From Escherichia coli (lineage in GTDB: Bacteria > Pseudomonadota > Gammaproteobacteria > Enterobacterales > Enterobacteriaceae): a DNA stretch of 64,000 bases. Below the pieces are notes generated by a model. It did not search any database. It was not told the origin of the DNA and saw only the letters and a list, made by a program, of their open reading frames with translations. Shown piece by piece: positions 8,731 to 45,204 of this stretch. Made by a program: the position numbers and the translations under genes. Each line of letters opens with the position of its first letter. Position 1 is the first letter of the stretch. The DNA is taken from assembly GCF_036507355.1 (NCBI RefSeq), contig NZ_AP027877.1; one strand, given 5' to 3'.

Positions 8731-10812
8731 TTACGCATTCGAGTAACGTTCCGTCTCCGGCATCCAGCGTTCTATCAGGGCTTTTGCCTGTTGTGGGTAA
8801 CGTTCGTGAATATGGCGTGCCAGGCGCTGAACTTCCGGGATCATCGCCTGATCGCGCAGTAAATCCGCCACTTTAAATTCAGCATTACCCGTCTGACGAG
8901 TGCCTAACAATTCGCCAGGGCCGCGAATCTCCAGATCTTTTTGTGCAATCACAAACCCGTCGTTGCTGTCGCGCAGCACTTGCAGGCGAATTTGCGCCGT
9001 TTTAGAAAGCGGCGTTTTATAGAGCAGCACGCAGTGAGAAGCCACCGCGCCACGACCTACACGCCCACGTAGCTGGTGCAACTGCGCCAGACCCAGACGC
9101 TCCGGGTTTTCGATAATCATCAGACTGGCGTTAGGCACATCAACGCCGACTTCAATAACGGTTGTGGCAACCAGCAGGTGTAGCTCACCTTGTTTAAACG
9201 ACGCCATCACCGCCTGTTTCTCGGCAGGTTTCATCCGCCCGTGTACCAGGCCAACATTCAACTCTGGTAGCGCCAGTTTCAACTCTTCCCAGATAGCTTC
9301 CGCCGCCTGCGCTTCCAGTAACTCTGACTCTTCAATCAACGTACAAACCCAGTACGCCTGACGACCTTCAGTCATGCAGGCGTGGCGCACGCGGTCAATG
9401 ATGTCGGTACGGCGAGTATCAGGAATAGCGACCGTAGTCACTGGCGTGCGGCCTGGCGGCAGTTCATCAATGACCGAGGTGTCGAGATCAGCATACGCAG
9501 TCATCGCCAGCGTGCGGGGGATCGGCGTGGCGGTCATGATCAACTGATGCGGATGGAAGCCTTGCTGCTGGCCTTTCTCCCACAATGCCAGACGCTGATG
9601 CACGCCAAAGCGATGCTGTTCGTCGATAATCACCAGCGCCAGGCCGTTAAACTGCACCTGTTCCTGGAAGATGGCGTGTGTTCCGACAATCATCTGCACC
9701 TGACCGCTGGCGATGGCTTCCTGCTGAGACAGTCGCGCTTTACCTTTCTGCTTACCGGCGAGCCAGCCCACTTCGATACCGAGCGGTGCAAACCAGTTGC
9801 GGAAGTTATTAGCGTGCTGTTCGGCGAGTAATTCGGTTGGTGCCATCAATGCCACCTGTTTGCCGTGGGCAATCGCACGCAGCGCGGCGAGGGCAGCGAC
9901 CAGCGTTTTACCGGAACCTACATCGCCCTGTACCAGGCGCATCATCGGCACATTCAGCGCCATATCGCGCTCGATCTCCGCCACCACGCGAGCCTGAGCG
10001 CCCGTTGGCTTGAACGGTAAGGCGGCAAGAAGTTTATTTTTCAGCGTGTCATTGGCGCTCAGCGGCTGGGCATGGAAACGTTGCGCTCCGGCGCGTAAGG
10101 CTAACATGCTGAGGTTATGCGCCAGCAGTTCTTCCAGAATCAGACGACGTTGCGCCGGATGCTGCCCGGTTTCCAGATCGCTAAGTTGCAGCGTCGGCGG
10201 CGGGCGGTGCAAAGTGCGCAACGCTTCCGGTAGCGTCATCATTCCTTGTGACAGTTCCGGCGGCAGGAGTTCTTCAATGGCGCAGGTGTCGAGCAGATCC
10301 AGCGCCTGGTCGGTTAATTTACGCAGCGTGGCCTGCTTTACGCCTTCGGTTGTTGGATAAACCGGCGTGAGCGTTTCCTGCAACTCTGGCGTACTGAGAT
10401 CGCCCTGCACGCGGTATTCCGGGTGGATCATCTCCGCACCATATTTACCGCGCTTTGCTTCTCCATAGGCCAGCACGCGGCGGCCCGTCGCCAGGCTATT
10501 TTTCATTGCCGCGTTGAAGTTGAAAAAGCGCATGGTGAGAATGCCGGAACCGTCGCTGATCTGGCAGGTCATCATCCGCCGACCGCCGAAGGAGATATTG
10601 CAGTTCAGCACTTCGCCTTCCACCGTGGCATAAACGCCCGGTAGTAGTTCTCCGATGGGGTAGAGATGGGTGCGATCTTCGTAGCGCAGGGGAAGGTGTA
10701 AGAGTAGATCCTGCACAGTCTGCAGGTTGATTTTCGCCAGCTTGTTACTAAGCGCTGCGCCAACGCCCGTTAGGGAACTGAGCGGGACAGCATCTAACAG
10801 GCGACCTTTCAT
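8731..10812 (-). CDS. recG: ATP-dependent DNA helicase RecG
   Basis: ATG at 10812 (MKGRLLDAVPLSSL...); Walker A GDVGSGKT, DEQH box, helicase motifs visible. Confidence 0.95.
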   Translation of the reverse strand: MKGRLLDAVPLSSLTGVGAALSNKLAKINLQTVQDLLLHLPLRYEDRTHLYPIGELLPGVYATVEGEVLNCNISFGGRRMMTCQISDGSGILTMRFFNFNAAMKNSLATGRRVLAYGEAKRGKYGAEMIHPEYRVQGDLSTPELQETLTPVYPTTEGVKQATLRKLTDQALDLLDTCAIEELLPPELSQGMMTLPEALRTLHRPPPTLQLSDLETGQHPAQRRLILEELLAHNLSMLALRAGAQRFHAQPLSANDTLKNKLLAALPFKPTGAQARVVAEIERDMALNVPMMRLVQGDVGSGKTLVAALAALRAIAHGKQVALMAPTELLAEQHANNFRNWFAPLGIEVGWLAGKQKGKARLSQQEAIASGQVQMIVGTHAIFQEQVQFNGLALVIIDEQHRFGVHQRLALWEKGQQQGFHPHQLIMTATPIPRTLAMTAYADLDTSVIDELPPGRTPVTTVAIPDTRRTDIIDRVRHACMTEGRQAYWVCTLIEESELLEAQAAEAIWEELKLALPELNVGLVHGRMKPAEKQAVMASFKQGELHLLVATTVIEVGVDVPNASLMIIENPERLGLAQLHQLRGRVGRGAVASHCVLLYKTPLSKTAQIRLQVLRDSNDGFVIAQKDLEIRGPGELLGTRQTGNAEFKVADLLRDQAMIPEVQRLARHIHERYPQQAKALIERWMPETERYSNA

Positions 10813-23398: not shown

Positions 23399-23860
23399 TT
23401 ACTCAGTATGATCAGCGGCATCCTTTGGGGTGCCGTTTTGCTTTATCCGGTCATTAATTTCCTCCAGCAAGTCTTCAGCCTTAACCAATTCTCTGATTGC
23501 CTTTGCTGTCCGCGCTGCCTCTGCTTCAGCTTTGTCGGCTGATTTTTTGGCTAACTGTTCGCGCCTTTCGGCTCTGGCTTGAGCATCCAACTCCCAATCG
23601 CATGAAAGGTGGCGGCCATCTAGATACCTGCTTACGATAACGCCTCTTTCATCCGTATCCTCATGAATGAACCACCAGCCATGCTTCTCGTTCATTAATT
23701 GCTGCAATGGTGAGCGATAGTGTTTACCTGCTATTTGAAGTAATTCGTCTTCACAAACAGGGCCATCAACCAGCGCGCGCCAGATTCGATATGCCTTTGT
23801 GCCTGGCTTAGGGATAGTGTGCAACGGCGCAGTAATCAGGATTTTCTCCCAGTTCTTCAT
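23399..23860 (-). CDS. hypothetical protein (153 aa) between alpA and primase
   Basis: ORF MKNWEKILITAPLHTIPKPGTKAYRIWRALVDG...; ATG overlaps alpA stop (ATGA); charged coiled-coil-like C-terminus. Confidence 0.55.
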   Translation of the reverse strand: MKNWEKILITAPLHTIPKPGTKAYRIWRALVDGPVCEDELLQIAGKHYRSPLQQLMNEKHGWWFIHEDTDERGVIVSRYLDGRHLSCDWELDAQARAERREQLAKKSADKAEAEAARTAKAIRELVKAEDLLEEINDRIKQNGTPKDAADHTE

Positions 23861-24030
23861 TTTTTGGCCTCCAGCCATGAGTTGATTTCTGTTGAAGACC
23901 ATGCTGTAACGCGTTCAGAAAGTTTTATGGGTTTTGGTATCTTCCCGGTTCTTGCCCAGCGCCAAAGAGAAGAAACGCTAATTCCCAGTTGGTTAGCCAG
24001 GTCTTTAGGGCGTAAATATTGCGTTTTCAT
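23857..24030 (-). CDS. alpA: AlpA-family transcriptional regulator
   Basis: 57-aa ORF MKTQYLRPKDLANQLGISVSSLWRWARTGKIPKPIKL... (HTH, AlpA/Xis-like); GAGG SD. Confidence 0.75.
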   Translation of the reverse strand: MKTQYLRPKDLANQLGISVSSLWRWARTGKIPKPIKLSERVTAWSSTEINSWLEAKK

Positions 24031-24112
24031 TTGGTATACCTCGCTCAACGCACTGCCACTCAGTGCTACGACAGCAAAGATAAAGGCATCCAGTGGCAGA
24101 TATAATGCGCAG

Positions 24113-24150
24113 CAAAGTAGGTCTTCACTTTCAAAGTAGGTCTTCACTTT
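24113..24150. promoter_or_regulatory. tandem 19-bp direct repeat upstream of alpA (candidate operator)
   Basis: caaagtaggtcttcacttt repeated twice back-to-back, directly seen; overlaps stop of upstream 283-aa gene. Confidence 0.5.
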
Positions 24151-24995
24151 TGTGAGAATGTTTCAGGGAACCATTCTTGTAGTTGCTGCCTAAGTTTTTG
24201 GCATCTAGAATCATCTTTAATATTGATATCTATACCTTCCTTTGCGGCATACCTTTTTATCGCTTCAATTGTTGCGTCCAGAGTGATGGAGCCGCGTACC
24301 CCCTTACATTCTTCAATCTCATGCTTCAGAACGTATTCAGCTACCTTGCGGCGATTGGCGTGTATCTGAGCGTATCGGATAGTTCGCCCGTCGGTATTGT
24401 CACCAATCGTTTTTAGTGCCTGTTTTGCCTGTGCCGCTTCATAAACTCGCTCAATGTCTTCGGCAGACAGGAACGTTTCATTCATAGAAATAACAAGCGA
24501 GTTATCACCAGTAAAAGTGATGTCCAAACTCCCAACCCCATCAGGACGTTCGTCTATAGCCTCCAGATAATTATTAATGGTGTCCTTGTTTAACCTTATC
24601 GGCTCATTTGGCCTTATAGGAAAAGATGACGGTATGGCCCAGTAACCAGAAGCAATGCCAGTACACCAGAAACAATCTTCCTCAGTGGAAATATGGAAAT
24701 CGGTGCTGACTTTTGAAAGCTCAAGCCCTAACGGGTGAGGTCGATTTTTCGTGGCGCATCCCATATATAGCGCCTCGGCAATTTCTTTCGCATTGTTTTG
24801 GATTAACTCCCGGGAAAGAAAGCCTCCAAATGAACAAGGCTCGCCATTGAGGAGAGCATACAGATGGATCCGGCGCTCTTGATGGTAAGCAACCAACGTA
24901 GTAGGACTTACACCCAACAGCTCGCTTGCCTCAGCTATAGATACTGGCCCATCAGGTCTAACCCTTTTCTTTTTTTCCCAGATTGAAGCGCGCAT
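24144..24995 (-). CDS. hypothetical HTH-domain protein (283 aa)
   Basis: N-terminal helix-turn-helix-like segment SIAEASELLGVSPTTLVAYHQ; remainder unrecognised; sits between int and alpA. Confidence 0.55.
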   Translation of the reverse strand: MRASIWEKKKRVRPDGPVSIAEASELLGVSPTTLVAYHQERRIHLYALLNGEPCSFGGFLSRELIQNNAKEIAEALYMGCATKNRPHPLGLELSKVSTDFHISTEEDCFWCTGIASGYWAIPSSFPIRPNEPIRLNKDTINNYLEAIDERPDGVGSLDITFTGDNSLVISMNETFLSAEDIERVYEAAQAKQALKTIGDNTDGRTIRYAQIHANRRKVAEYVLKHEIEECKGVRGSITLDATIEAIKRYAAKEGIDINIKDDSRCQKLRQQLQEWFPETFSQK

Positions 24996-25049
24996 TTTTC
25001 ACCCTGCCTGTCTTTTATTTGTTCGATTGATGTTCGGGCCAGAAATTTT

Positions 25050-25158
25050 TGTCCCGTCCTGTCCCGTCTTTTGTCCCGGTTTTGTCCCATAACCATTCTT
25101 GTAACCAGCTGTATTTATTGAGTCTTTACAAAACGGGACAAACGGGACAGATGGGACA
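25050..25158. repeat. second iteron cluster (4x TGTCCC, ~45-bp spacer, 3x GGGACA); crr-like site or operator
   Basis: Hexamers at 25050, 25060, 25072, 25083, 25135, 25144, 25153; same hexamer and architecture as 20556..20665, ~4.5 kb away. Confidence 0.55.
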
Positions 25159-25181
25159 AGCAAAAAAACAATATTGAAAAT

Positions 25182-26441
25182 CTATCTGGCTTGCCTCAGT
25201 GGTGTAACGTTGTACTCTTCGCCCCGTTCAAGCGCTTCCATCAGGTTGCCCAGCATGGCCAGCGCTTCCCGCCGTTCGTTTAAATATTGGTGACGGTTGT
25301 AGATGCCTTCGACGCCTTTAATGCGGTGATTAAGGCAACGTTCGGCAACGATAGGATCAACGCCCAGCGCTCCTAAGTGGGTTCGGGCGGTGCGCCTAAG
25401 GTCGTGAATAGTGAAGTTAGGTACGCCCGGCATTGCCTGCTTAACCTTCGCCAGCGCAACGGGCAGGGTGCTTTCCTGAATGTGGGGGATCATGCGGTGC
25501 TGTTGTTTTCGCGCAGGTAGTACCCATTTGCTGTTACAGGAAAGAAGGCGCAATTCTTCAAGCCATTCGATAGCCTGCTTTGGCAGCGGAATATCAATCC
25601 CGTCGCCCGTCTTTGTACGCTCGCCCGGCAAGTACCAAATGCCATTGGCTAAATCGAACTCGCTCCAGCGTGCGGCGCATAGCTCCATCTTTCTCACGCA
25701 AGTGACCAGCAGCAGCTTTATCGTCAATTCGTTCTCGCGGCTAAAGCCTTTCGCCATTCGCATGGCTTCAAAGAGTTGAACCAGTTCCGGCCTGGTTAAC
25801 CATCGTTCTCGAGATGTTTCCTTACCGCCCGCGTCACTTATATCAAAGGCGGCTGCGGGGTTAACCTCAATCATTCCCAGCTTGATCGCATGGTCAAAGA
25901 TGCGGCGTACCCATCGCAGGACGTCATTAGCAACGGATGGCGCACCACGTTTTAAGATGGCCTGAAGCAAGGCATCAATATCTCGGGGTTTGACGTCCTT
26001 AACCTTTTTCTGACCTATGCGAGGATTAATGTCTTTCGCCAGACGACGGCGGAGGATGTCGGGGTGTTTCCATGTACCCAGTACTTTCTTCTTAAAATAG
26101 TCTTCAGCTACTTCGGACACTGTTTTGTCATGCTGGTCGGCTTCCAACTGGGCTTTTAATGCGGCTTTTCGCTCCTGCTTCTCACCGGCAACGTCATACC
26201 CCAGGGAAACACGAGCAGCCAGCTCTCGGGTGATCTCCCGGGCTTTAGCCAGTGAGATAACGCCATACGCGCCAATTGTCATAACACGAGGCTTGCCAGC
26301 GAAGCGGTAGCGGAAACGCCATGATGGGGACGTGTCAGTAGTGCGATAGCGCAAATATAAACCGTTACCGTCCGATTTACCCTCGAACCTTGTTCCGGCC
26401 TTTATCCAGGCCTTGATCTGAATGTCTGTTAGCTTGCCCAT
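25182..26441 (-). CDS. int: tyrosine site-specific integrase (P4-type)
   Basis: 419-aa ORF; N-terminal arm-binding-like domain (GLYLRYR), C-terminal catalytic residues (HDLRRTARTHL ... GIYNRHQY); adjacent to attR. Confidence 0.85.
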   Translation of the reverse strand: MGKLTDIQIKAWIKAGTRFEGKSDGNGLYLRYRTTDTSPSWRFRYRFAGKPRVMTIGAYGVISLAKAREITRELAARVSLGYDVAGEKQERKAALKAQLEADQHDKTVSEVAEDYFKKKVLGTWKHPDILRRRLAKDINPRIGQKKVKDVKPRDIDALLQAILKRGAPSVANDVLRWVRRIFDHAIKLGMIEVNPAAAFDISDAGGKETSRERWLTRPELVQLFEAMRMAKGFSRENELTIKLLLVTCVRKMELCAARWSEFDLANGIWYLPGERTKTGDGIDIPLPKQAIEWLEELRLLSCNSKWVLPARKQQHRMIPHIQESTLPVALAKVKQAMPGVPNFTIHDLRRTARTHLGALGVDPIVAERCLNHRIKGVEGIYNRHQYLNERREALAMLGNLMEALERGEEYNVTPLRQAR

Positions 26442-26553
26442 ATCACCTCATTGGTTGCGTACCCTATCTACTTAATGCCTCTGCCTCATAGGGACACTAT
26501 TGGGTACACGAGAAATATGCGCTTTTATGATGCTAACTGCAACTTTGTGATAT

Positions 26554-26579
26554 GAAAAAAGCCCGTGATTAGCGGGCTT
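26554..26579 (-). terminator. rho-independent terminator supplied by the island for yicC
   Basis: minus-strand agcccg-ctaatca-cgggct hairpin followed by TTTTTT, ~40 nt downstream of the yicC stop, inside the island. Confidence 0.6.
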
Positions 26580-26617
26580 TGTAGGTGGTGTGATTCTGTA
26601 TGATATGGGGTGATACG

Positions 26618-27481
26618 CTACTCAATATTCTGAATCTGCTCGCGCATCTGCTCAATCAACACTTTCAGCTCGATGGCGGAGTTTGTCACTTCGGCGTTGA
26701 TAGATTTCGACGCAAGAGTGTTCGACTCGCGGTTGAACTCCTGCATCATAAAGTCCAGACGACGACCAACGGCTTCTTTTTTCTTCAGAATGTTGTAGGT
26801 CTCTTTGACATGCGCTTCGAGGCGGTCCAGTTCTTCGGCAACGTCAATTCGTTGTGCCAGCAGAACCAACTCCTGCTCCAGACGGTTGTTTTCCAACTGC
26901 ACCTGAGCATCTTCCAGCTTCGCGACCAAGCGTTCACGCTGCCATTGCAGGATTTCCGGCATATGGGAGCGGACTTTGACCACTTCGGCGGTGACGCCTT
27001 CCAGACGCTGCTCAATCAACGCTTTCAGCGCCTGACCTTCGGTTTCGCGAGCGATGATAAAGTCATCCAGGGTGCCATCCAACGCTGCGAGAATTTCAGC
27101 GGCAATCGCGTCGAGATCTTGCTCCTGGGCCGCCATCACGCCCGGCCAGCGTAGAATATCAACCGGGTTGATTTCCCCTTCGTCACTCTGCATTTTTACC
27201 CAGTTCGCGGCAGTTACCAGCTGTTTAGCCAGTTTTTCGTTGAGGATCAGCTCACCTTGCGCGCTAACATCTGGCTCATAGCGCAGAGTACATTCCACTT
27301 TACCGCGCGTCAGGCGAGAACGAATACGCTCACGAACGACAGGTTCAAGGCTACGGAACTGCTCCGGCAGACGAAAGTAAGTTTCCAGATAACGCTGGTT
27401 TACCGAGCGCATTTCCCAGGTTGCGCTCCCCCATTCACCCTTGATTTCACGCCGGGCGTAGGCGGTCATACTGCGGATCAT
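26618..27481 (-). CDS. yicC: YicC-family stress-induced protein
   Basis: 287-aa ORF MIRSMTAYARREIKGEWGSATWEMRSVNQRYLE... ending ...EQIQNIE. Confidence 0.9.
   Translation of the reverse strand: MIRSMTAYARREIKGEWGSATWEMRSVNQRYLETYFRLPEQFRSLEPVVRERIRSRLTRGKVECTLRYEPDVSAQGELILNEKLAKQLVTAANWVKMQSDEGEINPVDILRWPGVMAAQEQDLDAIAAEILAALDGTLDDFIIARETEGQALKALIEQRLEGVTAEVVKVRSHMPEILQWQRERLVAKLEDAQVQLENNRLEQELVLLAQRIDVAEELDRLEAHVKETYNILKKKEAVGRRLDFMMQEFNRESNTLASKSINAEVTNSAIELKVLIEQMREQIQNIE
26622..26638. other. attR core (tcaatAttctgaatctg) within the last codons of yicC
   Basis: 17-bp direct repeat of 18487..18503 with one mismatch. Confidence 0.7.
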
Positions 27482-27607
27482 AGACGTTCCTGTTTATAAA
27501 AGGAGAGGTGGAAGGATTATAGCCATCGATGCCTTGTCAGGATAGGAATAACCGCCGGAAGTCCGTATAATGCGCAGCCACATTTGTTTCAAGCCGGAGA
27601 TTTCAAT

Positions 27608-28324
27608 ATGCGTCCAGCAGGCCGTAGCAATAATCAGGTGCGTCCCGTTACCCTGACTCGTAACTATACAAAACATGCAGAAGGCTCGGTGCTGGTCGAA
27701 TTTGGCGATACCAAAGTGTTGTGTACCGCCTCTATTGAAGAAGGCGTGCCGCGCTTCCTGAAAGGTCAGGGCCAGGGCTGGATCACCGCAGAGTACGGCA
27801 TGCTGCCACGTTCTACCCACACCCGTAACGCTCGTGAAGCGGCGAAAGGTAAGCAGGGTGGACGCACAATGGAAATCCAGCGTCTGATCGCCCGTGCTCT
27901 TCGCGCGGCAGTAGATTTGAAAGCGCTGGGTGAGTTCACCATTACGCTGGACTGCGACGTGCTTCAGGCTGATGGTGGCACGCGTACCGCGTCGATTACG
28001 GGTGCCTGCGTGGCGCTGGCAGATGCGCTACAGAAGCTGGTGGAAAACGGCAAGCTGAAAACCAACCCGATGAAAGGGATGGTAGCCGCAGTTTCTGTCG
28101 GAATTGTGAACGGCGAAGCGGTTTGCGATCTGGAATACGTTGAAGACTCAGCCGCAGAGACCGACATGAACGTAGTGATGACCGAAGACGGGCGCATCAT
28201 TGAAGTGCAGGGGACGGCAGAAGGCGAGCCGTTCACCCATGAAGAGTTACTCACCTTGTTGGCGCTGGCCCGAGGGGGAATCGAATCCATTGTAGCGATG
28301 CAGAAGGCGGCGCTGGCAAACTGA
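27608..28324 (+). CDS. rph: ribonuclease PH
   Basis: ATG at 27608 ([20 protein letters not shown]...), full-length 238-aa frame. Confidence 0.95.
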
Positions 28325-28331
28325 TTTTTAA

Positions 28332-28358
28332 GGCGACTGATGAGTCGCCTTTTTTTTG
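28332..28358 (+). terminator. rph terminator / pyrE attenuator hairpin
   Basis: ggcgactga-tgagtcgcc hairpin followed by TTTTTTTT between rph and pyrE. Confidence 0.7.
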
Positions 28359-28389
28359 TCTGTAGAAAAGTAAGATGAGGAGCGAAGGC

Positions 28390-29031
28390 ATGAAACCATA
28401 TCAGCGCCAGTTTATTGAATTTGCGCTTAGCAAGCAGGTGTTAAAGTTTGGTGAGTTTACGCTGAAATCCGGGCGCAAAAGCCCCTATTTCTTCAACGCC
28501 GGGCTGTTTAATACCGGGCGCGATCTGGCACTGTTAGGCCGTTTTTACGCTGAAGCATTGGTGGATTCCGGCATTGAGTTCGATCTGCTGTTTGGCCCTG
28601 CTTACAAAGGGATCCCGATTGCTACCACAACCGCCGTGGCGCTGGCGGAGCATCATGACCTGGACCTGCCGTACTGCTTTAACCGCAAAGAGGCAAAAGA
28701 CCACGGTGAAGGCGGCAATCTGGTCGGTAGCGCGTTACAAGGACGCGTAATGCTGGTGGATGATGTGATCACCGCCGGAACGGCGATTCGCGAGTCGATG
28801 GAAATTATTCAGGCCAATGGCGCGACGCTTGCTGGCGTATTGATTTCGCTTGATCGTCAGGAACGCGGGCGCGGCGAGATTTCGGCGATTCAGGAAGTTG
28901 AGCGTGATTACAACTGCAAAGTGATCTCTATCATCACCCTGAAAGATCTGATTGCCTACCTGGAAGAGAAGCCGGAAATGGCGGAACATCTGGCGGCGGT
29001 TAAGGCCTATCGCGAAGAGTTCGGCGTTTAA
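28390..29031 (+). CDS. pyrE: orotate phosphoribosyltransferase
   Basis: ATG at 28390 ([29 protein letters not shown]...), PRPP-binding motif [12 protein letters not shown]. Confidence 0.95.
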
Positions 29032-29067
29032 AGAAACTCGCCGGATGAAAAGTCATCCGGCGTCATA

Positions 29068-29664
29068 TTACTGCAACTGCGCGGCAATTAGCGGCCAGCG
29101 GGCGTCAAAATCATCCGTCGGGCGGTATTTAAACTCGCTGCGGACAAAGCGTGACAGCATACCTTCACAGAAGGCCAGGATCTGGCTTGCCAGCAGGGTT
29201 TCATCGGTGGTGTAACCTTCACCCTCACGCATTCTCTTTTCACGCAATACCTGGCGCAACTGCGCTTCAATACGCTCGCACAGCTGGTTGATGCGCCCTT
29301 GCAGGCGATCCTGTTCAAACATCAGCGCATGACCAGTGAGGATGCGGGTCAGGCCAGGATTACGCTCACCAAAACCGAGAAGCAGCAACACTATCAGACG
29401 CAGGCGCGCTGTGGTGTCTTTCTCATCTTTCAGAATCAGATTGATGCGAGTAATCAGGCTATCTTCGATAAACTCAATCAGGCTATCGAACATGCGGGTC
29501 TTACTGGGGAAGTGGCGATACAGTGCCGCTTCGGAAACGCCGACAGAGGCGGCCAGTTTTGCCGTCGTGATACGTTGGCTTCCATCGCTGGATTCCAGCA
29601 TCAGCGCCAGAGACTGAAGTATTTCCTCGCGACGGTTCCTTTTCGCAGTTTGTTTTTCTGCCAT
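29068..29664 (-). CDS. slmA: nucleoid occlusion factor SlmA (TetR family)
   Basis: ATG at 29664 ([24 protein letters not shown]...), TetR-type HTH. Confidence 0.9.
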
Positions 29665-29770
29665 GTTACAAAATACCCCTGAAAATAAGCACTTGCCAGG
29701 CGGCACCCACGCTATGACCGCAAACGAAATGTTTGCGGCTATGTTATGACGTTATTCGGATGCGTATGTG

Positions 29771-30229
29771 TTACTGACGACCAGAGTGACCAAAGCCGCC
29801 TTCACCGCGGTCGGTGGCGTCGAAATCTTCCACCAGATTAAATTCAGCCTGTACTACTGGAACAAAAATCATCTGGGCGATGCGTTCGCCAGGTTGAATG
29901 GTGAAGCTGTCCTGACCACGGTTCCACACGGAAATCATCAACTGGCCCTGATAGTCGGAATCGATCAATCCTACCAGGTTACCAAGCACGATACCGTGCT
30001 TATGTCCCAATCCGGAGCGCGGCAGCATCATTGCCGCCAGTGAAGGATCGGCAATATGAATCGCCAGCCCGGTCGGAACCAGCGTAGTGTCACCCGGAGC
30101 CAGTTCTACGGCGTCGTCGAGACAGGCACGCAGGTCAAGTCCGGCAGAGCCAGAGGTGGCATAAGTCGGGAGCGGAAATTCCTTCCCAACGCGCGGGTCC
30201 AGAATCTTAACGTCGATTTTTTTCATCAT
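29771..30229 (-). CDS. dut: dUTP diphosphatase
   Basis: 152-aa [18 protein letters not shown]..., dUTPase motifs. Confidence 0.95.
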
Positions 30230-31427
30230 AACGGGTCACGATCTCGTCGAGTAATAATTGGCCAAGGAGCTCTTTGCGCTCAAGCGGTAAGACTTTATCT
30301 CCGTCCTGCCAGAAAAGGTGTAATGCGTTGTTGTCGCTGTTAAATCCTTGAGTTGGCTGGGAAACATCGTTCGCGCAGATCAGATCAAGGTTTTTACGGA
30401 TACGTTTTTGCCGGGCGTATTCTTCCACATTATTTGTTTCGGCGGCAAATCCAACGACGTAGGGTCGATGGTCTTTTAGTGCGGCAACGCCTGCGACGAT
30501 ATCGGGGTTTTTAACCATTTTTATTGTTAATTCATCACTCTGCGTGGCCTGCTTTTTGATTTTTTCTGGGGCCACGGTAGCTGCGCGATAATCCGCCACG
30601 GCGGCGCAACCGATAAAAATATTTTGCTGCTGTACAGAAGCATTCACGGCGGCTTCCATTTCCAGCGCGGTCATCACATCAACACGTTTAACAAACGGTG
30701 GCGTCGGTAGTGAAACCGGACCTGATACCAGCGTGACGTTCGCGCCACGACGGGCAGCGGCGGCAGCGATAGCAAAACCCATCTTGCCGGAGCTGTGATT
30801 AGAGATATAACGCACCGGATCGAGCGGTTCACGCGTCGGACCGGCGGTAATCATAATGTTCAGATGTTTCAGGTCGTTGACGGGCGAAAAATGCGCTACC
30901 GCCATATCCACAATGGTTAACGGATCGAGCATTCGCCCTGGGCCGATATCACCACAAGCCTGACTGCCACTGTCTGGCCCCCAGATGAGCAAACCACGGG
31001 AGGCAAGCACCTCTAAATTATGCTGCGTGGCAGCGGCACGGTACATCTGCTGGTTCATGGCGGGGAGCACGGCTACAGGCGCAGGTGTAGCCAGACAAAT
31101 CGTCGATACCAGGTCATTCGCCATTCCGGCAGCAACACGGGCAATCAAATCTGCCGTGGCAGGGGCGAGAATCACTAAATCAGCCCATTTACCCAGCTCA
31201 ATATGGCCCATAGCGGCTTCGGCTGCCGGGTCCAGCAGACTGTCGGAAACGGGATAACCAGAAACCGCCTGCAAGCTAAGTGGGGTGATAAAGGCTTTTG
31301 CCGCTTCGGTCATGGCTACGCGGACGTCGGCCCCGCGATCGCGCAAACGACGCACCAGTTCAGGGGTTTTATAGGCAGCAATACCGCCGCTAACGCCGAG
31401 AACGATTTTTTTACCGGCCAGGCTCAT
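30207..31427 (-). CDS. coaBC: bifunctional phosphopantothenoylcysteine decarboxylase / synthetase
   Basis: ATG at 31427 ([20 protein letters not shown]...), flavoprotein N-domain and CoaB C-domain. Confidence 0.9.
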
Positions 31428-31592
31428 GATGATTTTTCCTGTAGGGTGACACCAGAAGTTGGCGATTTTATCACAATACTTTTGTTGTCGTGCCTTCACC
31501 TGAGATTCACTTTGCGAGGCGCTTTCCAGGATTGAAAACTGACCGTCGATTTAACGGAACGGCTATGACAGGATGCGAGCACCACAAAGGAG

Positions 31593-32267
31593 GTGAAGGT
31601 GAAAAACAATGCACAGCTGTTGATGCCGCGCGAAAAAATGCTGAAGTTTGGTATTAGCGCCTTAACGGATGTCGAGCTGCTGGCGCTATTTCTGCGTACC
31701 GGAACGCGCGGTAAAGATGTATTAACCCTGGCAAAAGAGATGCTGGAGAATTTCGGCTCTCTTTATGGGTTGTTAACCTCTGAATATGAACAATTTAGTG
31801 GTGTTCATGGAATTGGCGTGGCGAAATTTGCCCAGTTAAAGGGGATTGCTGAACTGGCGCGGCGTTACTACAACGTGCGGATGCGTGAAGAAAGCCCTTT
31901 ACTCAGCCCGGAGATGACGCGGGAATTTTTACAAAGCCAGCTCACGGGTGAGGAGCGGGAGATCTTTATGGTGATCTTTCTCGACTCACAACACCGGGTT
32001 ATAACGCATAGCCGTCTTTTTTCCGGCACGCTAAACCATGTTGAAGTCCATCCTCGGGAAATTATCCGCGAAGCGATAAAAATAAACGCCTCGGCGCTGA
32101 TCCTTGCACATAATCACCCTTCGGGTTGTGCTGAACCCAGTAAAGCGGATAAACTCATTACTGAACGGATAATAAAGAGTTGTCAGTTCATGGATTTACG
32201 CGTGCTCGACCATATCGTGATTGGGCGTGGAGAGTATGTTTCTTTTGCCGAACGCGGCTGGATTTAA
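31593..32267 (+). CDS. radC: RadC-like JAB-domain protein (UPF0758)
   Basis: ORF ...[32 protein letters not shown]..., JAMM motif HNHPSG; exact start (GTG 31593 or 31599) uncertain. Confidence 0.85.
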
Positions 32268-38210: not shown

Positions 38211-39000
38211 ACTTAAAGAGCCGTTTGCCACGTTATGGCGCGGTAAAGATCCTTTTGAGGAAGTTAAAACCTTGCAGGGTGAGGTATTTCGTGAACTGGA
38301 AACTCGCCGTACTCTGCGCTTTGAAATGGCGGGCAAAAGCTATTTTCTCAAATGGCATCGCGGCACGACCCTGAAAGAGATAATCAAAAATTTACTCTCA
38401 TTGCGGATGCCAGTATTAGGCGCAGACCGCGAATGGAATGCGATTCATCGACTGCGGGATGTCGGCGTTGATACTATGTATGGGGTGGCATTTGGCGAAA
38501 AAGGCATGAATCCGCTGACCAGAACTTCATTTATTATTACCGAAGATCTGACACCAACCATAAGTCTGGAAGATTACTGTGCTGACTGGGCGACTAACCC
38601 TTCAGATGTTCGCGTAAAGCGTATGCTTATTAAGCGTGTCGCGACGATGGTGCGCAATATGCATGCTGCGGGCATTAACCACCGTGACTGTTATATCTGT
38701 CATTTCCTGCTGCACTTGCCTTTTTCCGGTAAGGAAGAGGAGTTAAAAATTTCGGTAATTGACCTGCACCGGGCGCAGCTTCGCACGCGCGTTCCACGTC
38801 GTTGGCGCGATAAAGATCTTATTGGGCTTTATTTTTCATCGATGAATATCGGCCTGACTCAGCGGGATATCTGGCGGTTTATGAAAGTGTATTTTGCCGC
38901 CCCGCTTAAAGACATTCTCAAGCAGGAACAAGGACTGCTGTCGCAAGCAGAAGCAAAAGCCACAAAAATCAGGGAAAGAACGATTCGAAAATCGTTGTAA
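38203..39000 (+). CDS. waaP: LPS core heptose(I) kinase
   Basis: ATG at 38203 ([22 protein letters not shown]...). Confidence 0.9.
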
Positions 39001-39042
39001 CCCGTAACTTATTTTTGCCAAAATTTTGGATACAGAATAAAT

Positions 39043-40050
39043 ATGTCTCAACTCAATGATAGTGACATCATCCTTTTTGAGTATAATTTTCATTATCAAA
39101 ATATAAGATCTAAAAATACTCTTGATATAGCATTTGGTATTGACAGAAATTTTCTTTTTGGATGTGGTGTAGCCATCGCATCTATTCTATTAAACAATAG
39201 AGAAATCTCTTGTGAATTTCATGTTTTCACAGATTATATCAGTGATAAAGACAAGTTATATTTTTCCGATTTAGCAAAACAATATAATTCAAGAATTAAT
39301 ATTTATGTTATCAATTGTGATAAGCTGAAGTCATTACCAAGCACGAAAAACTGGACTTACGCTACATATTTTCGATTTATAATTGCAGATTATTTCTATA
39401 ATAAACATGAAAAAATACTATACCTTGATGCAGATATTGCTTGCAAGGGTAGTATTAAAGAACTCTTAGATTATCAATTCTCTACTAATGAAATTGCCGC
39501 AGTTGTAGCTGAAAGAGATGTTGAATGGTGGCAGAATCGAGCCTCGGTATTAACTACACCACAATTAGCTTCTGGATATTTCAATGCTGGTTTTTTACTG
39601 ATAAATATTGATGAGTGGAATCTTAATAACATTTCGTCAAAAGCTATTGAAATGTTGCGTGACCCAGATTGGGTAAGTAAAATCACCCACCTTGATCAAG
39701 ATGTACTGAATGTATTATTGAATGGTAAAGTGAAGTTTATTTCGGGGAAATATAATACCCGATATAGTATTAACTATGAATTAAAAGACAAAGTTGATAA
39801 TCCAGTCAATGATGACACCGTGTTTATACACTATGTGGGACCTACAAAACCCTGGCATGAATGGGCTGATTATCCGGTGTCACGTAGTTTTTTGATCGCC
39901 AAAGCAGCCTCTCCGTGGTGTAAAGAAGATTTACTTAAACCTGTAAATAGCAATCAGTACCGGTATTGTGCAAAACATAAATTTAAACAAAAGCATTATA
40001 TGGCAGGCATTTTTAATTATTTAAAGTATTATAAAGAAAAATGCTTCTAA
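39043..40050 (+). CDS. waaI: LPS outer-core alpha-1,3 glycosyltransferase (GT8), WaaI/WaaO-like
   Basis: 335-aa GT8 ORF with DxD (YLDADI); AT-rich; symbol assigned from R3-type gene order GT8-kinase-GT8-GT4. Confidence 0.65.
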   Translation: MSQLNDSDIILFEYNFHYQNIRSKNTLDIAFGIDRNFLFGCGVAIASILLNNREISCEFHVFTDYISDKDKLYFSDLAKQYNSRINIYVINCDKLKSLPSTKNWTYATYFRFIIADYFYNKHEKILYLDADIACKGSIKELLDYQFSTNEIAAVVAERDVEWWQNRASVLTTPQLASGYFNAGFLLINIDEWNLNNISSKAIEMLRDPDWVSKITHLDQDVLNVLLNGKVKFISGKYNTRYSINYELKDKVDNPVNDDTVFIHYVGPTKPWHEWADYPVSRSFLIAKAASPWCKEDLLKPVNSNQYRYCAKHKFKQKHYMAGIFNYLKYYKEKCF

Positions 40051-40075
40051 AGATTTAAGGTTAAAATAATTCATT

Positions 40076-40783
40076 ATGATATATAATAAAACGATAAATG
40101 GGTTAAACGTTTTCATAAAAGATAATGATCCCTTTTATGAGCAAGTTCTGAATGACTTTTTAACTTGCAGGGTTAAAACATTAAAAGTTTTTCGTTCTAT
40201 TGATGATACTAAAGTCATTCTTATTGACACTGCTCGTGGACCTCTTGTACTTAAAGTTTATGCGCCAAAGCATAAAATGATCGAACGTTTCTTAAAATCT
40301 TGCGTAAAAAAAGATTATTATGAAAATTTAATTTATCAAACCGATCGGGTACGTGGTGAAGGCATTCAATCAATTAATGACTATTTTTTGCTTGCTGAAC
40401 GTAAAACATTAAATTTCGCGCATTATTATATTATGCTCATTGAGTATATTGAAGGTATCGGGTTAAATGAGTATTTGGAAATTTCTGAAGAACTGAAGGA
40501 TCAATTATCAGAATCGATAAAAGAGTTGCATCAGCATGGAATGGTGTCTGGCGATCCTCATAAAGGAAATTTTATAGTATCCGAAAAAGGTTTAAGACTA
40601 ATTGACCTTTCAGGTAAAAAAACAACCGCAGTTTTAAAAGCAAAAGATCGCATTGATCTTGAACGGCACTATAATATAAAAAATGAATTGAAAGACTTTG
40701 GCTATACATATCTTATATTCAAAAAGAAAATTAAAAAAGCAATCAGGGATGTAAAAGTCAAACTAGGCTTGAAGAGCAAATAA
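40076..40783 (+). CDS. waaY: LPS core heptose(II) kinase
   Basis: 235-aa kinase-like ORF MIYNKTINGLNVFIKDNDPFYEQ... Confidence 0.75.
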   Translation: MIYNKTINGLNVFIKDNDPFYEQVLNDFLTCRVKTLKVFRSIDDTKVILIDTARGPLVLKVYAPKHKMIERFLKSCVKKDYYENLIYQTDRVRGEGIQSINDYFLLAERKTLNFAHYYIMLIEYIEGIGLNEYLEISEELKDQLSESIKELHQHGMVSGDPHKGNFIVSEKGLRLIDLSGKKTTAVLKAKDRIDLERHYNIKNELKDFGYTYLIFKKKIKKAIRDVKVKLGLKSK

Positions 40784-40807
40784 TGATTATGATGAAGGGT
40801 AATTAAA

Positions 40808-41821
40808 TTGGATTTTAAACATCTTACTCAATTTAAAGATATAATTGAACTGGACAAGCGCCCCGTTAAACTTGATGAACGGGAAACGTTTAATGTCTCA
40901 TGGGGTATTGATGAGAACTACCAGGTTGGGACTGCGATTTCAATTGCTTCAATTCTTGAAAATAATAAACAAAACAAATTTACCTTTCACATAATCGCTG
41001 ATTACTTAGACAAAGAGTATATTGAATTATTATCACAATTAGCAACGAAGTATCAAACAGTAATTAAATTATATCATATTGATTCTGAGCCATTGAAGGC
41101 GTTACCTCAATCAAATATCTGGCCAGTATCTATTTATTATCGTTTGCTTTCATTTGATTATTTTTCTGCGCGATTGGATTCATTATTATATCTTGATGCT
41201 GATATCGTTTGCAAGGGTTCATTGAACGAGTTAATAGCATTAGAGTTTAAAGATGAATATGGGGCTGTGGTAATTGATGTAGATACTATGCAAAGTAAAA
41301 GCGCTGAGCGTTTATGTAATGAGGATTTTAACGGTAGCTATTTTAACTCTGGTGTAATGTATATTAATTTACGGGAATGGTTAAAACAAAGACTAACGGA
41401 GAAATTCTTTGAACTATTATCAGATGAGTCAATTATCAAAAAATTAAAATATCCGGATCAAGATATTTTAAACTTAATGTTTCTACATCATGCTAAAATA
41501 TTACCGAGAAAATATAACTGTATTTATACTATAAAGTCAGAATTTGAAGAAAAAAATAGTGAATATTACACCCGGTTTATTAATGATGAAACTGTCTTCA
41601 TACATTATACTGGTGTAACAAAGCCATGGCATGATTGGGCGAACTACGCATCTGCAGATTATTTTCGTAATATTTATAATATATCACCATGGAGAAATAT
41701 ACCTTATAAAAAAGCTGTTAAAAAACATGAGTACAAAGAAAAATATAAACACTTGCTTTACCAGAAAAAATTTCTCGATGGTTTTTTTACAGCAATTAAA
41801 TATAATTTTATGAAAGGTTAA
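40808..41821 (+). CDS. waaJ: LPS outer-core alpha-1,2 glycosyltransferase (GT8), WaaJ-like
   Basis: 337-aa GT8 ORF with DxD (YLDADIVCKG); non-ATG (TTG) start in ORF track. Confidence 0.65.
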   Translation: MDFKHLTQFKDIIELDKRPVKLDERETFNVSWGIDENYQVGTAISIASILENNKQNKFTFHIIADYLDKEYIELLSQLATKYQTVIKLYHIDSEPLKALPQSNIWPVSIYYRLLSFDYFSARLDSLLYLDADIVCKGSLNELIALEFKDEYGAVVIDVDTMQSKSAERLCNEDFNGSYFNSGVMYINLREWLKQRLTEKFFELLSDESIIKKLKYPDQDILNLMFLHHAKILPRKYNCIYTIKSEFEEKNSEYYTRFINDETVFIHYTGVTKPWHDWANYASADYFRNIYNISPWRNIPYKKAVKKHEYKEKYKHLLYQKKFLDGFFTAIKYNFMKG

Positions 41822-41829
41822 CATTCGAG

Positions 41830-42972
41830 ATGGTTGATAAAATAATATTTACAGTTACTCCTATTTTTTCAATTCCTCCTCGCGGAGCGGCCGCTGTTGA
41901 AACGTGGATGTATCAGGTTGCTCAGCGTACCAATTTCCCAAATCGTATTGTTTGTATCAAGAATCCAGGATACTCAAATTACACCTTTGTTAATGATAAT
42001 TGTAGTATTCATAGGGTTGGATTCAGTCGCATATATAAGCGGTTATTTCAAAAATGGACAAGACTTGATCCTCTTCCATATTCACAGAGAATATTGAATA
42101 TTGCACATGATTTTTCTATAACGAAAGAAAGTGTTATTGTAGTTCATAATAGCATGAAGCTATACACTCAAATTCGTAAGCGAGCTCCTCAGGCAAGAGT
42201 GGTTATACATATGCATAATGCATTTGAACCAAAATTGCTTGAGCAAAATGTTAAAATGATAGTGCCTAGTTTATACTTGAAAAAGTATTACCAATCTTAT
42301 TTAGCAAATGCAGATATTGAGATTGTACCAAATGGAATTGATTTAGAAACCTATCAATCTACTTTTCAGCCGATCACTAGAAGCGAACTTAATATCTCCC
42401 CTGAAGAGAAAATTATTTTTTATGCTGGGCGTATCGTCCCTGACAAAGGCATATTGCTGTTGATGCAATCATTCGAAAAATTGGCCGCTGCTCACAAAAA
42501 TTTAAAATTAGTTGTGATTGGTGATTATACAGAAATGAGTAAAAGTGACAAAGGTGCATATCAACGCAATGTCAGGGACATTGCAAAACGTTTGAAGGAT
42601 CGTTGCATTATGTTAGGAAGCATACCGCCTGAAAAGATGCATTGTTATTACCCACTGGCAGATTTAGTCGTCATTCCTTCCCAGTTCCAGGAACCATTTT
42701 GCATGGTGGCAATTGAAGCTATGGGTGCTGGTAAGCCTGTTTTAGTGAGTACGCGTGGGGGGATGACGGAATTTGTCAAAGAAAATACTACGGGATTCCA
42801 TTTAAAAGAACCTATGACTGCAGACTCCATAAGCAGCGATATTTTAAAAACGTTAGCGAATCCTGAATTAACAGCAGTTGCAAAGCAAGGTCAGGATTTT
42901 GTGTTTGAACACTACAGTTGGGATGGCGTAACTCAAAGATTCGAAGAGGTTATTCATAATTGGTTTGAATAA
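41830..42972 (+). CDS. waaD: LPS outer-core glycosyltransferase (GT4), WaaD-like
   Basis: 380-aa GT4 ORF (E-x7-E region FQEPFCMVAIEAMGAGKPVL); last gene of central operon as in R3 cores. Confidence 0.55.
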   Translation: MVDKIIFTVTPIFSIPPRGAAAVETWMYQVAQRTNFPNRIVCIKNPGYSNYTFVNDNCSIHRVGFSRIYKRLFQKWTRLDPLPYSQRILNIAHDFSITKESVIVVHNSMKLYTQIRKRAPQARVVIHMHNAFEPKLLEQNVKMIVPSLYLKKYYQSYLANADIEIVPNGIDLETYQSTFQPITRSELNISPEEKIIFYAGRIVPDKGILLLMQSFEKLAAAHKNLKLVVIGDYTEMSKSDKGAYQRNVRDIAKRLKDRCIMLGSIPPEKMHCYYPLADLVVIPSQFQEPFCMVAIEAMGAGKPVLVSTRGGMTEFVKENTTGFHLKEPMTADSISSDILKTLANPELTAVAKQGQDFVFEHYSWDGVTQRFEEVIHNWFE

Positions 42973-43006
42973 ATAAAAAGGCTGCATTATGCAGCCTTTT
43001 TATTTT

Positions 43007-44215
43007 TTACTTGTTTTTCATCGCTAATAATAAGCCGGCGTAAACGCCTAATAAATTTGGTTCAATTTGTTCTACGTTTCCACGGATAACAAAATAACCT
43101 ATAAAAGATAGTAAGATTATATAATATGCATTATATGGTGAGCGGTATTTATTCTGGACGCCATTTTTTATACACTCTTTCAATATTGCACAGTATAGCA
43201 TCATAAGACTTACCAGCCCTAATAAACCAGTGCCAAACCAGATGAATAGCGCGAAATTATGTGGCCCTATTGATTGTCTAAAGGTCCATTCTGGATAATC
43301 AACGACACGTTTATTATAGACATCTTTATATGCAACGTTACCGTAACCATAACCAATAACAGGATTTTCTAATATTAGATCGAGTGCGCTGCCTTGAGTA
43401 CCATTTGCATAGCGATAAGAACTATTAGTTTGTTGAAGTTTATACGTTAGATTTGCGGTCATCTCCTTATGTGTGAAAATAACCGACAATGCAATGATGG
43501 AAACCATTACTCCTACTAATAGTAACTTCCATTGTTTAAACATCAGAATCCATATTAATCCAATGACTAACACGGAAAGCCAGGCCCCTCTGGATAAAGT
43601 TCCTAATATCAGAAAAATAAAAATAACGCTTAGAACCACAAAAGAAATGCGGTATTTTGCTGATTTGATAAGCCAGAGATTTAACAATGCAGGGAATAAA
43701 AAGACCATCGAGTCAGAAATGCTACGGTGTCTATAATCTGCGAATGGCATTATCCCTTGTTGATAGTCCTTATAATAGGCAATCAATTCAGAAAAACAGC
43801 GTAAGCCCAACGCACTAATAAATGAGAAGAAAACGATTTTTTCGACATCTTCTCTTTTCTCGTCTCTCAATATGACCGGTATTGCTATTGTGCATAGTAA
43901 AGTATTCTCAATAATAGCTTTGAAAATTTCCTTCATGCTAGCACCTGCATCAGGGGATTGAAGAAGTGACAGCAATGCAGCAATAGTTAATATGGCAACA
44001 CTACCAAAAAGAAATGTTTTAAATAGTGAGAGATAGTGTTTTGGCCGTTTGCAGAGATAGACGATTGTCGTTATTGTCATAAGAATAACAATAAGATGTT
44101 TATACCTTGTAATCCCACCCAAAAAATAGGTGGTAATGAATAAGAATACGAGAGCTCTGTTCCAGTACGCTATCCAGTTTTTTTTCTCGAGAGAGAAAAG
44201 TAATGTTGAGGTCAT
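43007..44215 (-). CDS. waaL: O-antigen ligase
   Basis: 402-aa polytopic membrane ORF, AT-rich, convergent with central waa operon. Confidence 0.8.
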   Translation of the reverse strand: MTSTLLFSLEKKNWIAYWNRALVFLFITTYFLGGITRYKHLIVILMTITTIVYLCKRPKHYLSLFKTFLFGSVAILTIAALLSLLQSPDAGASMKEIFKAIIENTLLCTIAIPVILRDEKREDVEKIVFFSFISALGLRCFSELIAYYKDYQQGIMPFADYRHRSISDSMVFLFPALLNLWLIKSAKYRISFVVLSVIFIFLILGTLSRGAWLSVLVIGLIWILMFKQWKLLLVGVMVSIIALSVIFTHKEMTANLTYKLQQTNSSYRYANGTQGSALDLILENPVIGYGYGNVAYKDVYNKRVVDYPEWTFRQSIGPHNFALFIWFGTGLLGLVSLMMLYCAILKECIKNGVQNKYRSPYNAYYIILLSFIGYFVIRGNVEQIEPNLLGVYAGLLLAMKNK

Positions 44216-45204
44216 CTTATCTCCGATGTCAACTTATTGGTTATTATTTCAAGATTTAAATTTTGAAAAACGGTTTGAGCTGGCAAATCTACAAGAGACA
44301 TACTTGTAGAACGACACTCTACTTGATTCTTTCCATACCCGCCAATTAATCCCGGATCGGTAGGTCCATAAAACGTGATATTGGGTCTATCCAGTGCCGC
44401 CGTTAAATGGCTTAACCCTGTATCCACTGACACTACAAATTTAGCCCCGGCCAGCACGCGGGCAACGCCTTCCAGACTCATCTTAGGCAATACTTCAACA
44501 TAAGCAAATCCTTCCGCCAGTCGTTTCGCCCGTTCTTCCTCATGCGGCGCGCCCCACGGAAGTTTAATCCGTATTCCTGAATCAGCCAGTAAACCAATCA
44601 ATTCTCGCCAGTGTTCTTCCGGCCAGTGTTTATCATCACGGGTCGTCGCATGAAGAAATACGGCATATTCGCCAGCATCTGTAGGCAGGTTCGTCAGAAA
44701 ATGCTGTGCGATAGCATAATCGCCCTGGGTTTGCGGTTTGCTATAGCCCAAACTTTTGGCAAACAGTTCGCGGGTGCGTTCTACGGCGTGCTGCTGTTTT
44801 GCAATATGATGCTTACAATTGTAAAACAGGCTGGCTAAAGGTTCGCGAGCGGTTTGCCAGTCCATGCCATGCTTTACGCCATGCGCCAGACGCGTCACCA
44901 GCGCCGCGCTTTTTACCAGCCCCTGAGCGTCGATAACTGCGTCATAGTTCTCTGCTTGTAGCGCTTCACGAAACGCTTTGCGTTCCGCTTTTATGGGGGC
45001 CGAGAACCAGGCTTTACGCCAGCGACGTATTGCCACAGGAATAACTCGCTCAACGGCAGCGTGCCAGGAAGGAATCTGTGCGAACCCTTCTTCCACCACC
45101 CAGTCAAACTTAATCCCTGGGATTGCCTGCTGGGCATCAGTGAGTGCGGGCAACGTATGGAGAACATCGCCCATCGACGATGTTTTAACGATCAAAACCA
45201 GCAT
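44212..45204 (-). CDS. waaC: LPS heptosyltransferase I
   Basis: GT9 ORF MLVLIVKTSSMGDVLHTLPALTDAQQAIPGIKF... Confidence 0.9.
   Translation of the reverse strand: MLVLIVKTSSMGDVLHTLPALTDAQQAIPGIKFDWVVEEGFAQIPSWHAAVERVIPVAIRRWRKAWFSAPIKAERKAFREALQAENYDAVIDAQGLVKSAALVTRLAHGVKHGMDWQTAREPLASLFYNCKHHIAKQQHAVERTRELFAKSLGYSKPQTQGDYAIAQHFLTNLPTDAGEYAVFLHATTRDDKHWPEEHWRELIGLLADSGIRIKLPWGAPHEEERAKRLAEGFAYVEVLPKMSLEGVARVLAGAKFVVSVDTGLSHLTAALDRPNITFYGPTDPGLIGGYGKNQVECRSTSMSLVDLPAQTVFQNLNLEIITNKLTSEIR

Follow-up and report, generated by a model that had tools for sequence, protein, structure and literature searches.

Sequence analysis points to an ordinary wild-type rph-pyrE operon in a non-K-12 Escherichia coli

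Results

We analyzed the rph gene and its surroundings in a stretch of 64,000 nucleotides of Escherichia coli DNA (contig NZ_AP027877.1), referred to below as the window. The DNA almost certainly comes from a non-K-12 strain whose rph-pyrE operon has the ordinary wild-type (rph+) allele, and nothing that we found in the sequence speaks against the wild-type reading. An intact rph is the already known, textbook state of this gene.

The rph gene is full length and belongs to the RNase PH family

The rph gene occupies positions 27608-28324 on the plus strand; its frame opens with ATG at 27608, runs unbroken through 238 sense codons and closes with TGA at 28322-28324. The preliminary description of this DNA had called the gene full length, with a frame reaching a C-terminus of AMQKAALAN, and our translation (238 aa) agrees. 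The mechanical ORF call begins 8 codons further upstream, at a TTG at 27584. The start of rph is the ATG, which has GGAG (27596-27599) before it, and the same start is annotated in all E. coli records examined.

Against the NCBIfam equivalog TIGR01966 (ribonuclease PH), the product scores 381.8 bits (cut-off 141.5; E-value 9.4e-115) and covers profile positions 1-235 of 236, which places the frame far beyond a chance ORF. Two Pfam domains are found, RNase_PH (PF01138; residues 10-140, 107.1 bits) and RNase_PH_C (PF03725; residues 157-222, 58.3 bits). We compared the product with solved RNase PH structures (1r6l and 1r6m from Pseudomonas aeruginosa, 1oyp from Bacillus subtilis, 1udn from Aquifex aeolicus and 3b4t from Mycobacterium tuberculosis). 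Residues 3-238 of the P. aeruginosa structure 1r6l align end to end with residues 2-237 of the window protein (E-value 1.3e-104), and end-to-end alignments are also obtained with RNase PH of B. subtilis, B. anthracis, M. tuberculosis and A. aeolicus; the solved structures matched are orthologues from other species, with no E. coli chain among the matches. The window protein and 1r6l are identical in an 11-residue segment from residue 122 (GGTR from 123) and in the acidic segment EDSAAETD from residue 179. In the RNase PH/PNPase fold, the GGTR segment serves in phosphate binding and the acidic segment in catalysis. The C-terminal helix is intact as well, its residues (223-238) lining up with the C-terminal ends of five RNase PH proteins of solved structure. 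RNase PH (EC 2.7.7.56) is a phosphorolytic 3'-to-5' exoribonuclease that trims the 3' ends of tRNA precursors. By its sequence, the window rph is a gene for a member of this family, and the enzyme activity of its product is predicted from the literature.

Comparison with the rph-1 allele of MG1655

The MG1655 record that we used as reference (NZ_CP097883.1) annotates rph as a pseudogene with a frameshift. Alignment of the two genes, which the preliminary description had proposed as a check, places GGGGG at 28274-28278 of the window (plus strand; rph nucleotides 667-671, codons 223-224) against GGGG in MG1655; the missing G is the rph-1 deletion, a single-base gap. Over window positions 26619-32040 (5,422 bases), the two genomes differ by 82 mismatches and exactly one gap, the one in the G run of rph (98.47% identity). 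The MG1655 frame, when translated, ends in LALARGESNPL after 228 aa, at a TAG equivalent to window positions 28293-28295 on the plus strand; in the window this TAG is out of frame. A premature stop, which would have contradicted the preliminary description, was looked for in the alignment, and the window rph contains none.

In the literature, rph-1 is described as the loss of 1 bp, which cuts RNase PH short and reduces pyrE expression (Jensen 1993, J Bacteriol 175:3401, as cited in PMC2784333 and PMC9997739). The preliminary description had likewise characterized the MG1655 allele as truncated and polar on pyrE, in line with PMC9997739 and PMC2784333. The rph-1 strains (K-12 MG1655, W3110 and EMG2) share the gene, the operon and identical promoter-side and attenuator spacers with the window. 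The rph-1 allele has G4, a product of 228 aa and a stop 34-36 nt before the attenuator stem, whereas the window has G5, 238 aa and a stop 5-7 nt before the stem. Besides the indel, seven nucleotide differences separate the two rph genes, and the window protein differs from the repaired K-12 protein by V138A, I216T and T231M. Much closer is the wild-type E. coli rph of NZ_OZ197100 (WP_001247093.1; 238 aa), which occupies the same position in yicC-rph-pyrE-slmA with the same intergenic sequences and differs from the window by one nucleotide and one amino acid in the whole gene (T231M).

The rph-pyrE operon and its spacers

Gene order in this region is conserved and canonical for E. coli: yicC-rph-pyrE-slmA-dut, then coaBC. 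The neighbor of rph, yicC, lies on the minus strand (26618-27481). Downstream on the plus strand, pyrE (28390-29031) encodes an orotate phosphoribosyltransferase of 213 aa (TIGR00336, 240.6 bits with a cut-off of 106.8), is preceded by AGGAG at 28378-28382 and is annotated at the matching place. Of 5,426 complete E. coli genomes searched with a 1,557-nt query covering rph and pyrE, 5,424 contain it once, on the chromosome.

The yicC-rph intergenic region (27482-27607, 126 nt, read on the plus strand) is 100% identical to its counterparts in MG1655 and in three further loci of E. coli, and the rph-pyrE spacer (28325-28389) is base-for-base identical to that of MG1655. Both operon spacers thus match MG1655 and other E. 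coli loci perfectly, against a divergence of about 1.5% in the coding sequence around them, a pattern consistent with strong constraint on the regulatory sequences. The operon promoter or promoters presumably lie in 27482-27607, where we note a perfect TATAAT at 27566-27571 upstream of the Shine-Dalgarno GGAG; a consensus promoter scan of 27400-29150 returned no canonical, full sigma-70 site upstream of rph. At the other end of the operon, a G+C-rich 10-bp inverted repeat (29039-29062) lies between the convergent pyrE and slmA genes; the scan calls it as a terminator on the minus strand (slmA side), and it probably serves both genes.

The pyrE attenuator

Directly 3' of the rph stop stands TTTTTAAGGCGACTGATGAGTCGCCTTTTTTTTGT. 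The terminator scan places a stem at 28330-28351 (9 pairs, 5 of them G-C, with a 4-nt loop) and a run of eight T at 28350-28357, so that hairpin and T run together span 28330-28357 on the plus strand. The centroid RNA fold consists of this hairpin alone. Compared with shuffled sequence, the hairpin by itself is not exceptional (z of -1.65 for the 66-nt stretch); we base the assignment as attenuator on identity to the characterized K-12 sequence. Searching 26400-29300 against Rfam at a permissive E-value matched no family, and no curated RNA family covers the pyrE attenuator.

In the published model, this hairpin is the pyrE attenuator, and its formation is blocked when RNA polymerase is closely followed by a ribosome that is translating the last part of rph, the coupling resting on a polymerase speed that is sensitive to UTP (Bonekamp et al. 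1984, as summarized in PMC2784333). Shifting the stop upstream, as rph-1 does, breaks the coupling, so that termination becomes constitutive and pyrimidines limiting; MG1655 regains the closeness of stop codon and hairpin through adaptive deletions (PMC2784333, PMC5933015). Set beside the UTP-sensitive attenuation worked out on the K-12 sequence (Bonekamp et al. 1984, as cited in PMC2784333 and PMC5933015), the window has an identical hairpin and U run, and its upstream frame ends beside the hairpin as the mechanism needs; we detected no difference between the two systems in sequence.

In the window, the spacer from the TGA (28322-28324) to the start of the stem (28330-28332) is 5-7 nt, which puts the stop within a ribosome footprint of the hairpin. 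The window therefore has the wild-type geometry of stop and hairpin that is required for normal pyrE regulation. From the literature we infer that the attenuation mechanism would be at work here. With the frame intact, ribosomes would reach the TGA just before the hairpin. When UTP is scarce, RNA polymerase would lag, the close ribosome would occlude the 5' arm of the hairpin, termination would be suppressed and transcription would continue into pyrE; when UTP is plentiful, the polymerase would run ahead, the hairpin would form and transcription would stop. In rph-1 strains, the ribosome would depart 29 nt earlier, short of the hairpin, leaving termination constitutively high and pyrE under-expressed. 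By its sequence, the window is free of this defect.

A variant of the attenuator was seen in another E. coli assembly, GCA_026800335.1, which encodes the identical RNase PH (with T231M). One C is lost from the 3' arm of its pyrE attenuator (GTCGCC to GTCGC; locus 10717-10782, equivalent to window positions 28348-28349), which removes one G-C pair. By its position, this deletion, which here accompanies an rph+ allele, may be the lesion described as the adaptive pyrE[G-41 delta G] of evolved MG1655 lines (PMC5933015). The change may be genuine attenuator variation or may stem from a sequencing error.

Frequency of the rph-1 allele among complete genomes

For counting rph-1 we used an 81-nt MG1655 query centered on the lesion, for which the band of at least 99% identity is reachable only by exact identity; a 101-nt query is unsuitable, as a single gap still falls within that band. 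The exact rph-1 allele was found in 167 of 5,426 complete E. coli genomes, so about 97% of complete genomes do not carry it. The 60 of these 167 genomes that were listed all have K-12 laboratory-strain names or laboratory-type sources (names among them include MG1655, W3110, BW25113, J53, HMS174 and MFDpir, as well as evolved lines). An intact rph is the norm in E. coli.

Strain background and alternative explanations

Sequence comparisons independent of rph identify the window as non-K-12 E. coli. The first 18.5 kb of the window share 97.5% identity with K-12, and its best matches among 5,426 complete genomes, at 99.0% over 25 kb, come from isolates of environmental and animal origin. The preliminary description had held that the intact rph confirms that the window is not of MG1655 type; its conclusion stands, but rph by itself does not carry it as far as 'confirms' implies, since rph+ K-12 strains exist and an intact gene excludes only carriers of rph-1, not K-12 as such. 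K-12 WG1, for example, is free of rph-1 (PMC9997739), and MG1655 has been restored to a true rph+ state by engineering (PMC5933015). We nevertheless give next to no credence to a K-12 strain with a never-mutated or repaired rph (the WG1/NCM3722 lineage or an engineered MG1655 rph+) as the source, because the window differs from MG1655 by 82 substitutions in 5.4 kb, has dinD and yicC separated by an 8.1-kb element with an integrase gene that is missing from K-12, has a central waa core region (38.9-44.3 kb) without a K-12 homologue, and contains dinD as a pseudogene, a gene that is intact in MG1655. On these grounds, together with the identities of 98.47% around rph and 97.5% over the first 18.5 kb, we rejected this candidate. 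An equally negligible probability attaches to the fifth G being an assembly or base-calling error in a strain that is truly frameshifted. Homopolymer runs are error-prone in some sequencing chemistries, and the difference in length, four G or five, is indeed one base; however, five G are the norm in the non-K-12 E. coli loci examined, and we rejected this explanation too. Exact rph-1 matches are confined to the 167 genomes counted above, the sequence around the G run is of a non-K-12 haplotype, and the frame downstream of G5 yields the conserved C-terminus that aligns with the solved structures.

The remaining alternatives concern codon 231 (28298-28300, plus strand), which is ATG (Met) in the window and ACG (Thr) in K-12 and in the closest complete genome, by a C-to-T change at 28299 that turns the common 'ATQ' into 'AMQ'. 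An open frame might still encode an impaired enzyme, if T231M in the C-terminal helix lowered the folding, assembly or activity of RNase PH. The substitution falls within the last 15 residues, the stretch replaced by the rph-1 frameshift, and the allele is rare: searching 5,426 complete RefSeq E. coli genomes with the terminal 102 nt of the window rph gave no 100% match (best 99.0%). Yet the aligned position varies among solved orthologues (Leu in P. aeruginosa, Lys in B. subtilis, Ala in M. tuberculosis, Ile in B. anthracis), the TIGR01966 score is undiminished, and the exact 238-aa protein is recorded as ribonuclease PH of E. coli (BED20310.1 and others) and occurs in a few draft assemblies. 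At least six E. coli loci encode it, in backbone DNA 98.5-98.8% identical to that of the window; an identical protein in differing DNA backgrounds means that the T231M allele exists in several of them and persists in nature. We regard an impaired enzyme as very improbable. Only slightly less improbable is the proposal that the change tunes pyrE through decoding speed or alters RNase PH assembly; position 28299, 23 nt upstream of the rph stop, lies where the progress of the ribosome relative to RNA polymerase sets read-through of the attenuator, and a codon change there could in principle tune pyrE. Given that the position varies in orthologues and that the allele recurs in E. coli of unrelated backgrounds, it is far more likely that T231M is a neutral polymorphism.

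Other regions of the window that differ from K-12

The dinD pseudogene (about 17400-18330, minus strand) shifts reading frame at least twice. Its 5' 212 nt (18017-18228) give no DNA alignment to K-12 dinD, while the encoded N-terminus is recognizably related. The closest complete genome, NZ_OZ197100, likewise has dinD annotated with a frameshift. The center of the waa (LPS core) locus at 38900-44300 has a G+C content of 0.31-0.40 and shows only patches of 64-70% identity to K-12 rfaS-waaU. This center is not homologous to K-12 rfaS-waaU, and the strain therefore has a core type other than that of K-12. When a 25-kb query that includes the waa locus was run against the 5,426 complete E. coli genomes, 1,360 covered at least 80% of it.

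Between dinD and yicC lies an integrative element of 8.1 kb (18504-26618); MG1655 does not have it. The element is flanked by an imperfect direct repeat of about 20 nt (18484-18503 and 26619-26638) with the exact core TTCTGAATCTG. This repeat duplicates the 3' end of yicC, so the C-terminus of YicC is unchanged (it ends in REQIQNIE). The recognized genes of the element, all on the minus strand, encode a tyrosine integrase (25182-26441), an AlpA-like regulator or excisionase (23857-24147), a Toprim primase part (22462-23388) and a DUF927 primase/helicase part (20759-22480). Seven further small ORFs on the same strand gave no match to Pfam, PHROG or PADLOC; the small-ORF search of the element returned only DUF927, Toprim and AlpA. 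Only 17 of the 5,426 complete E. coli genomes cover at least 80% of a query spanning the element and its flanks (16500-27600), and different integrase elements occupy the same yicC site in other genomes. The element looks like a small phage-satellite-type island. The side observations reported here, this element above all, are more unusual than the intact rph.

Discussion

The intact rph of the window has no bearing on any open question. Its use is mainly as a check of provenance and of annotation: the DNA is that of a natural E. coli that is not K-12 and whose rph-pyrE operon is normal. Because the operon is normal, predictions on pyrimidine metabolism or on tRNA 3' processing in this strain should not inherit the MG1655 defect.
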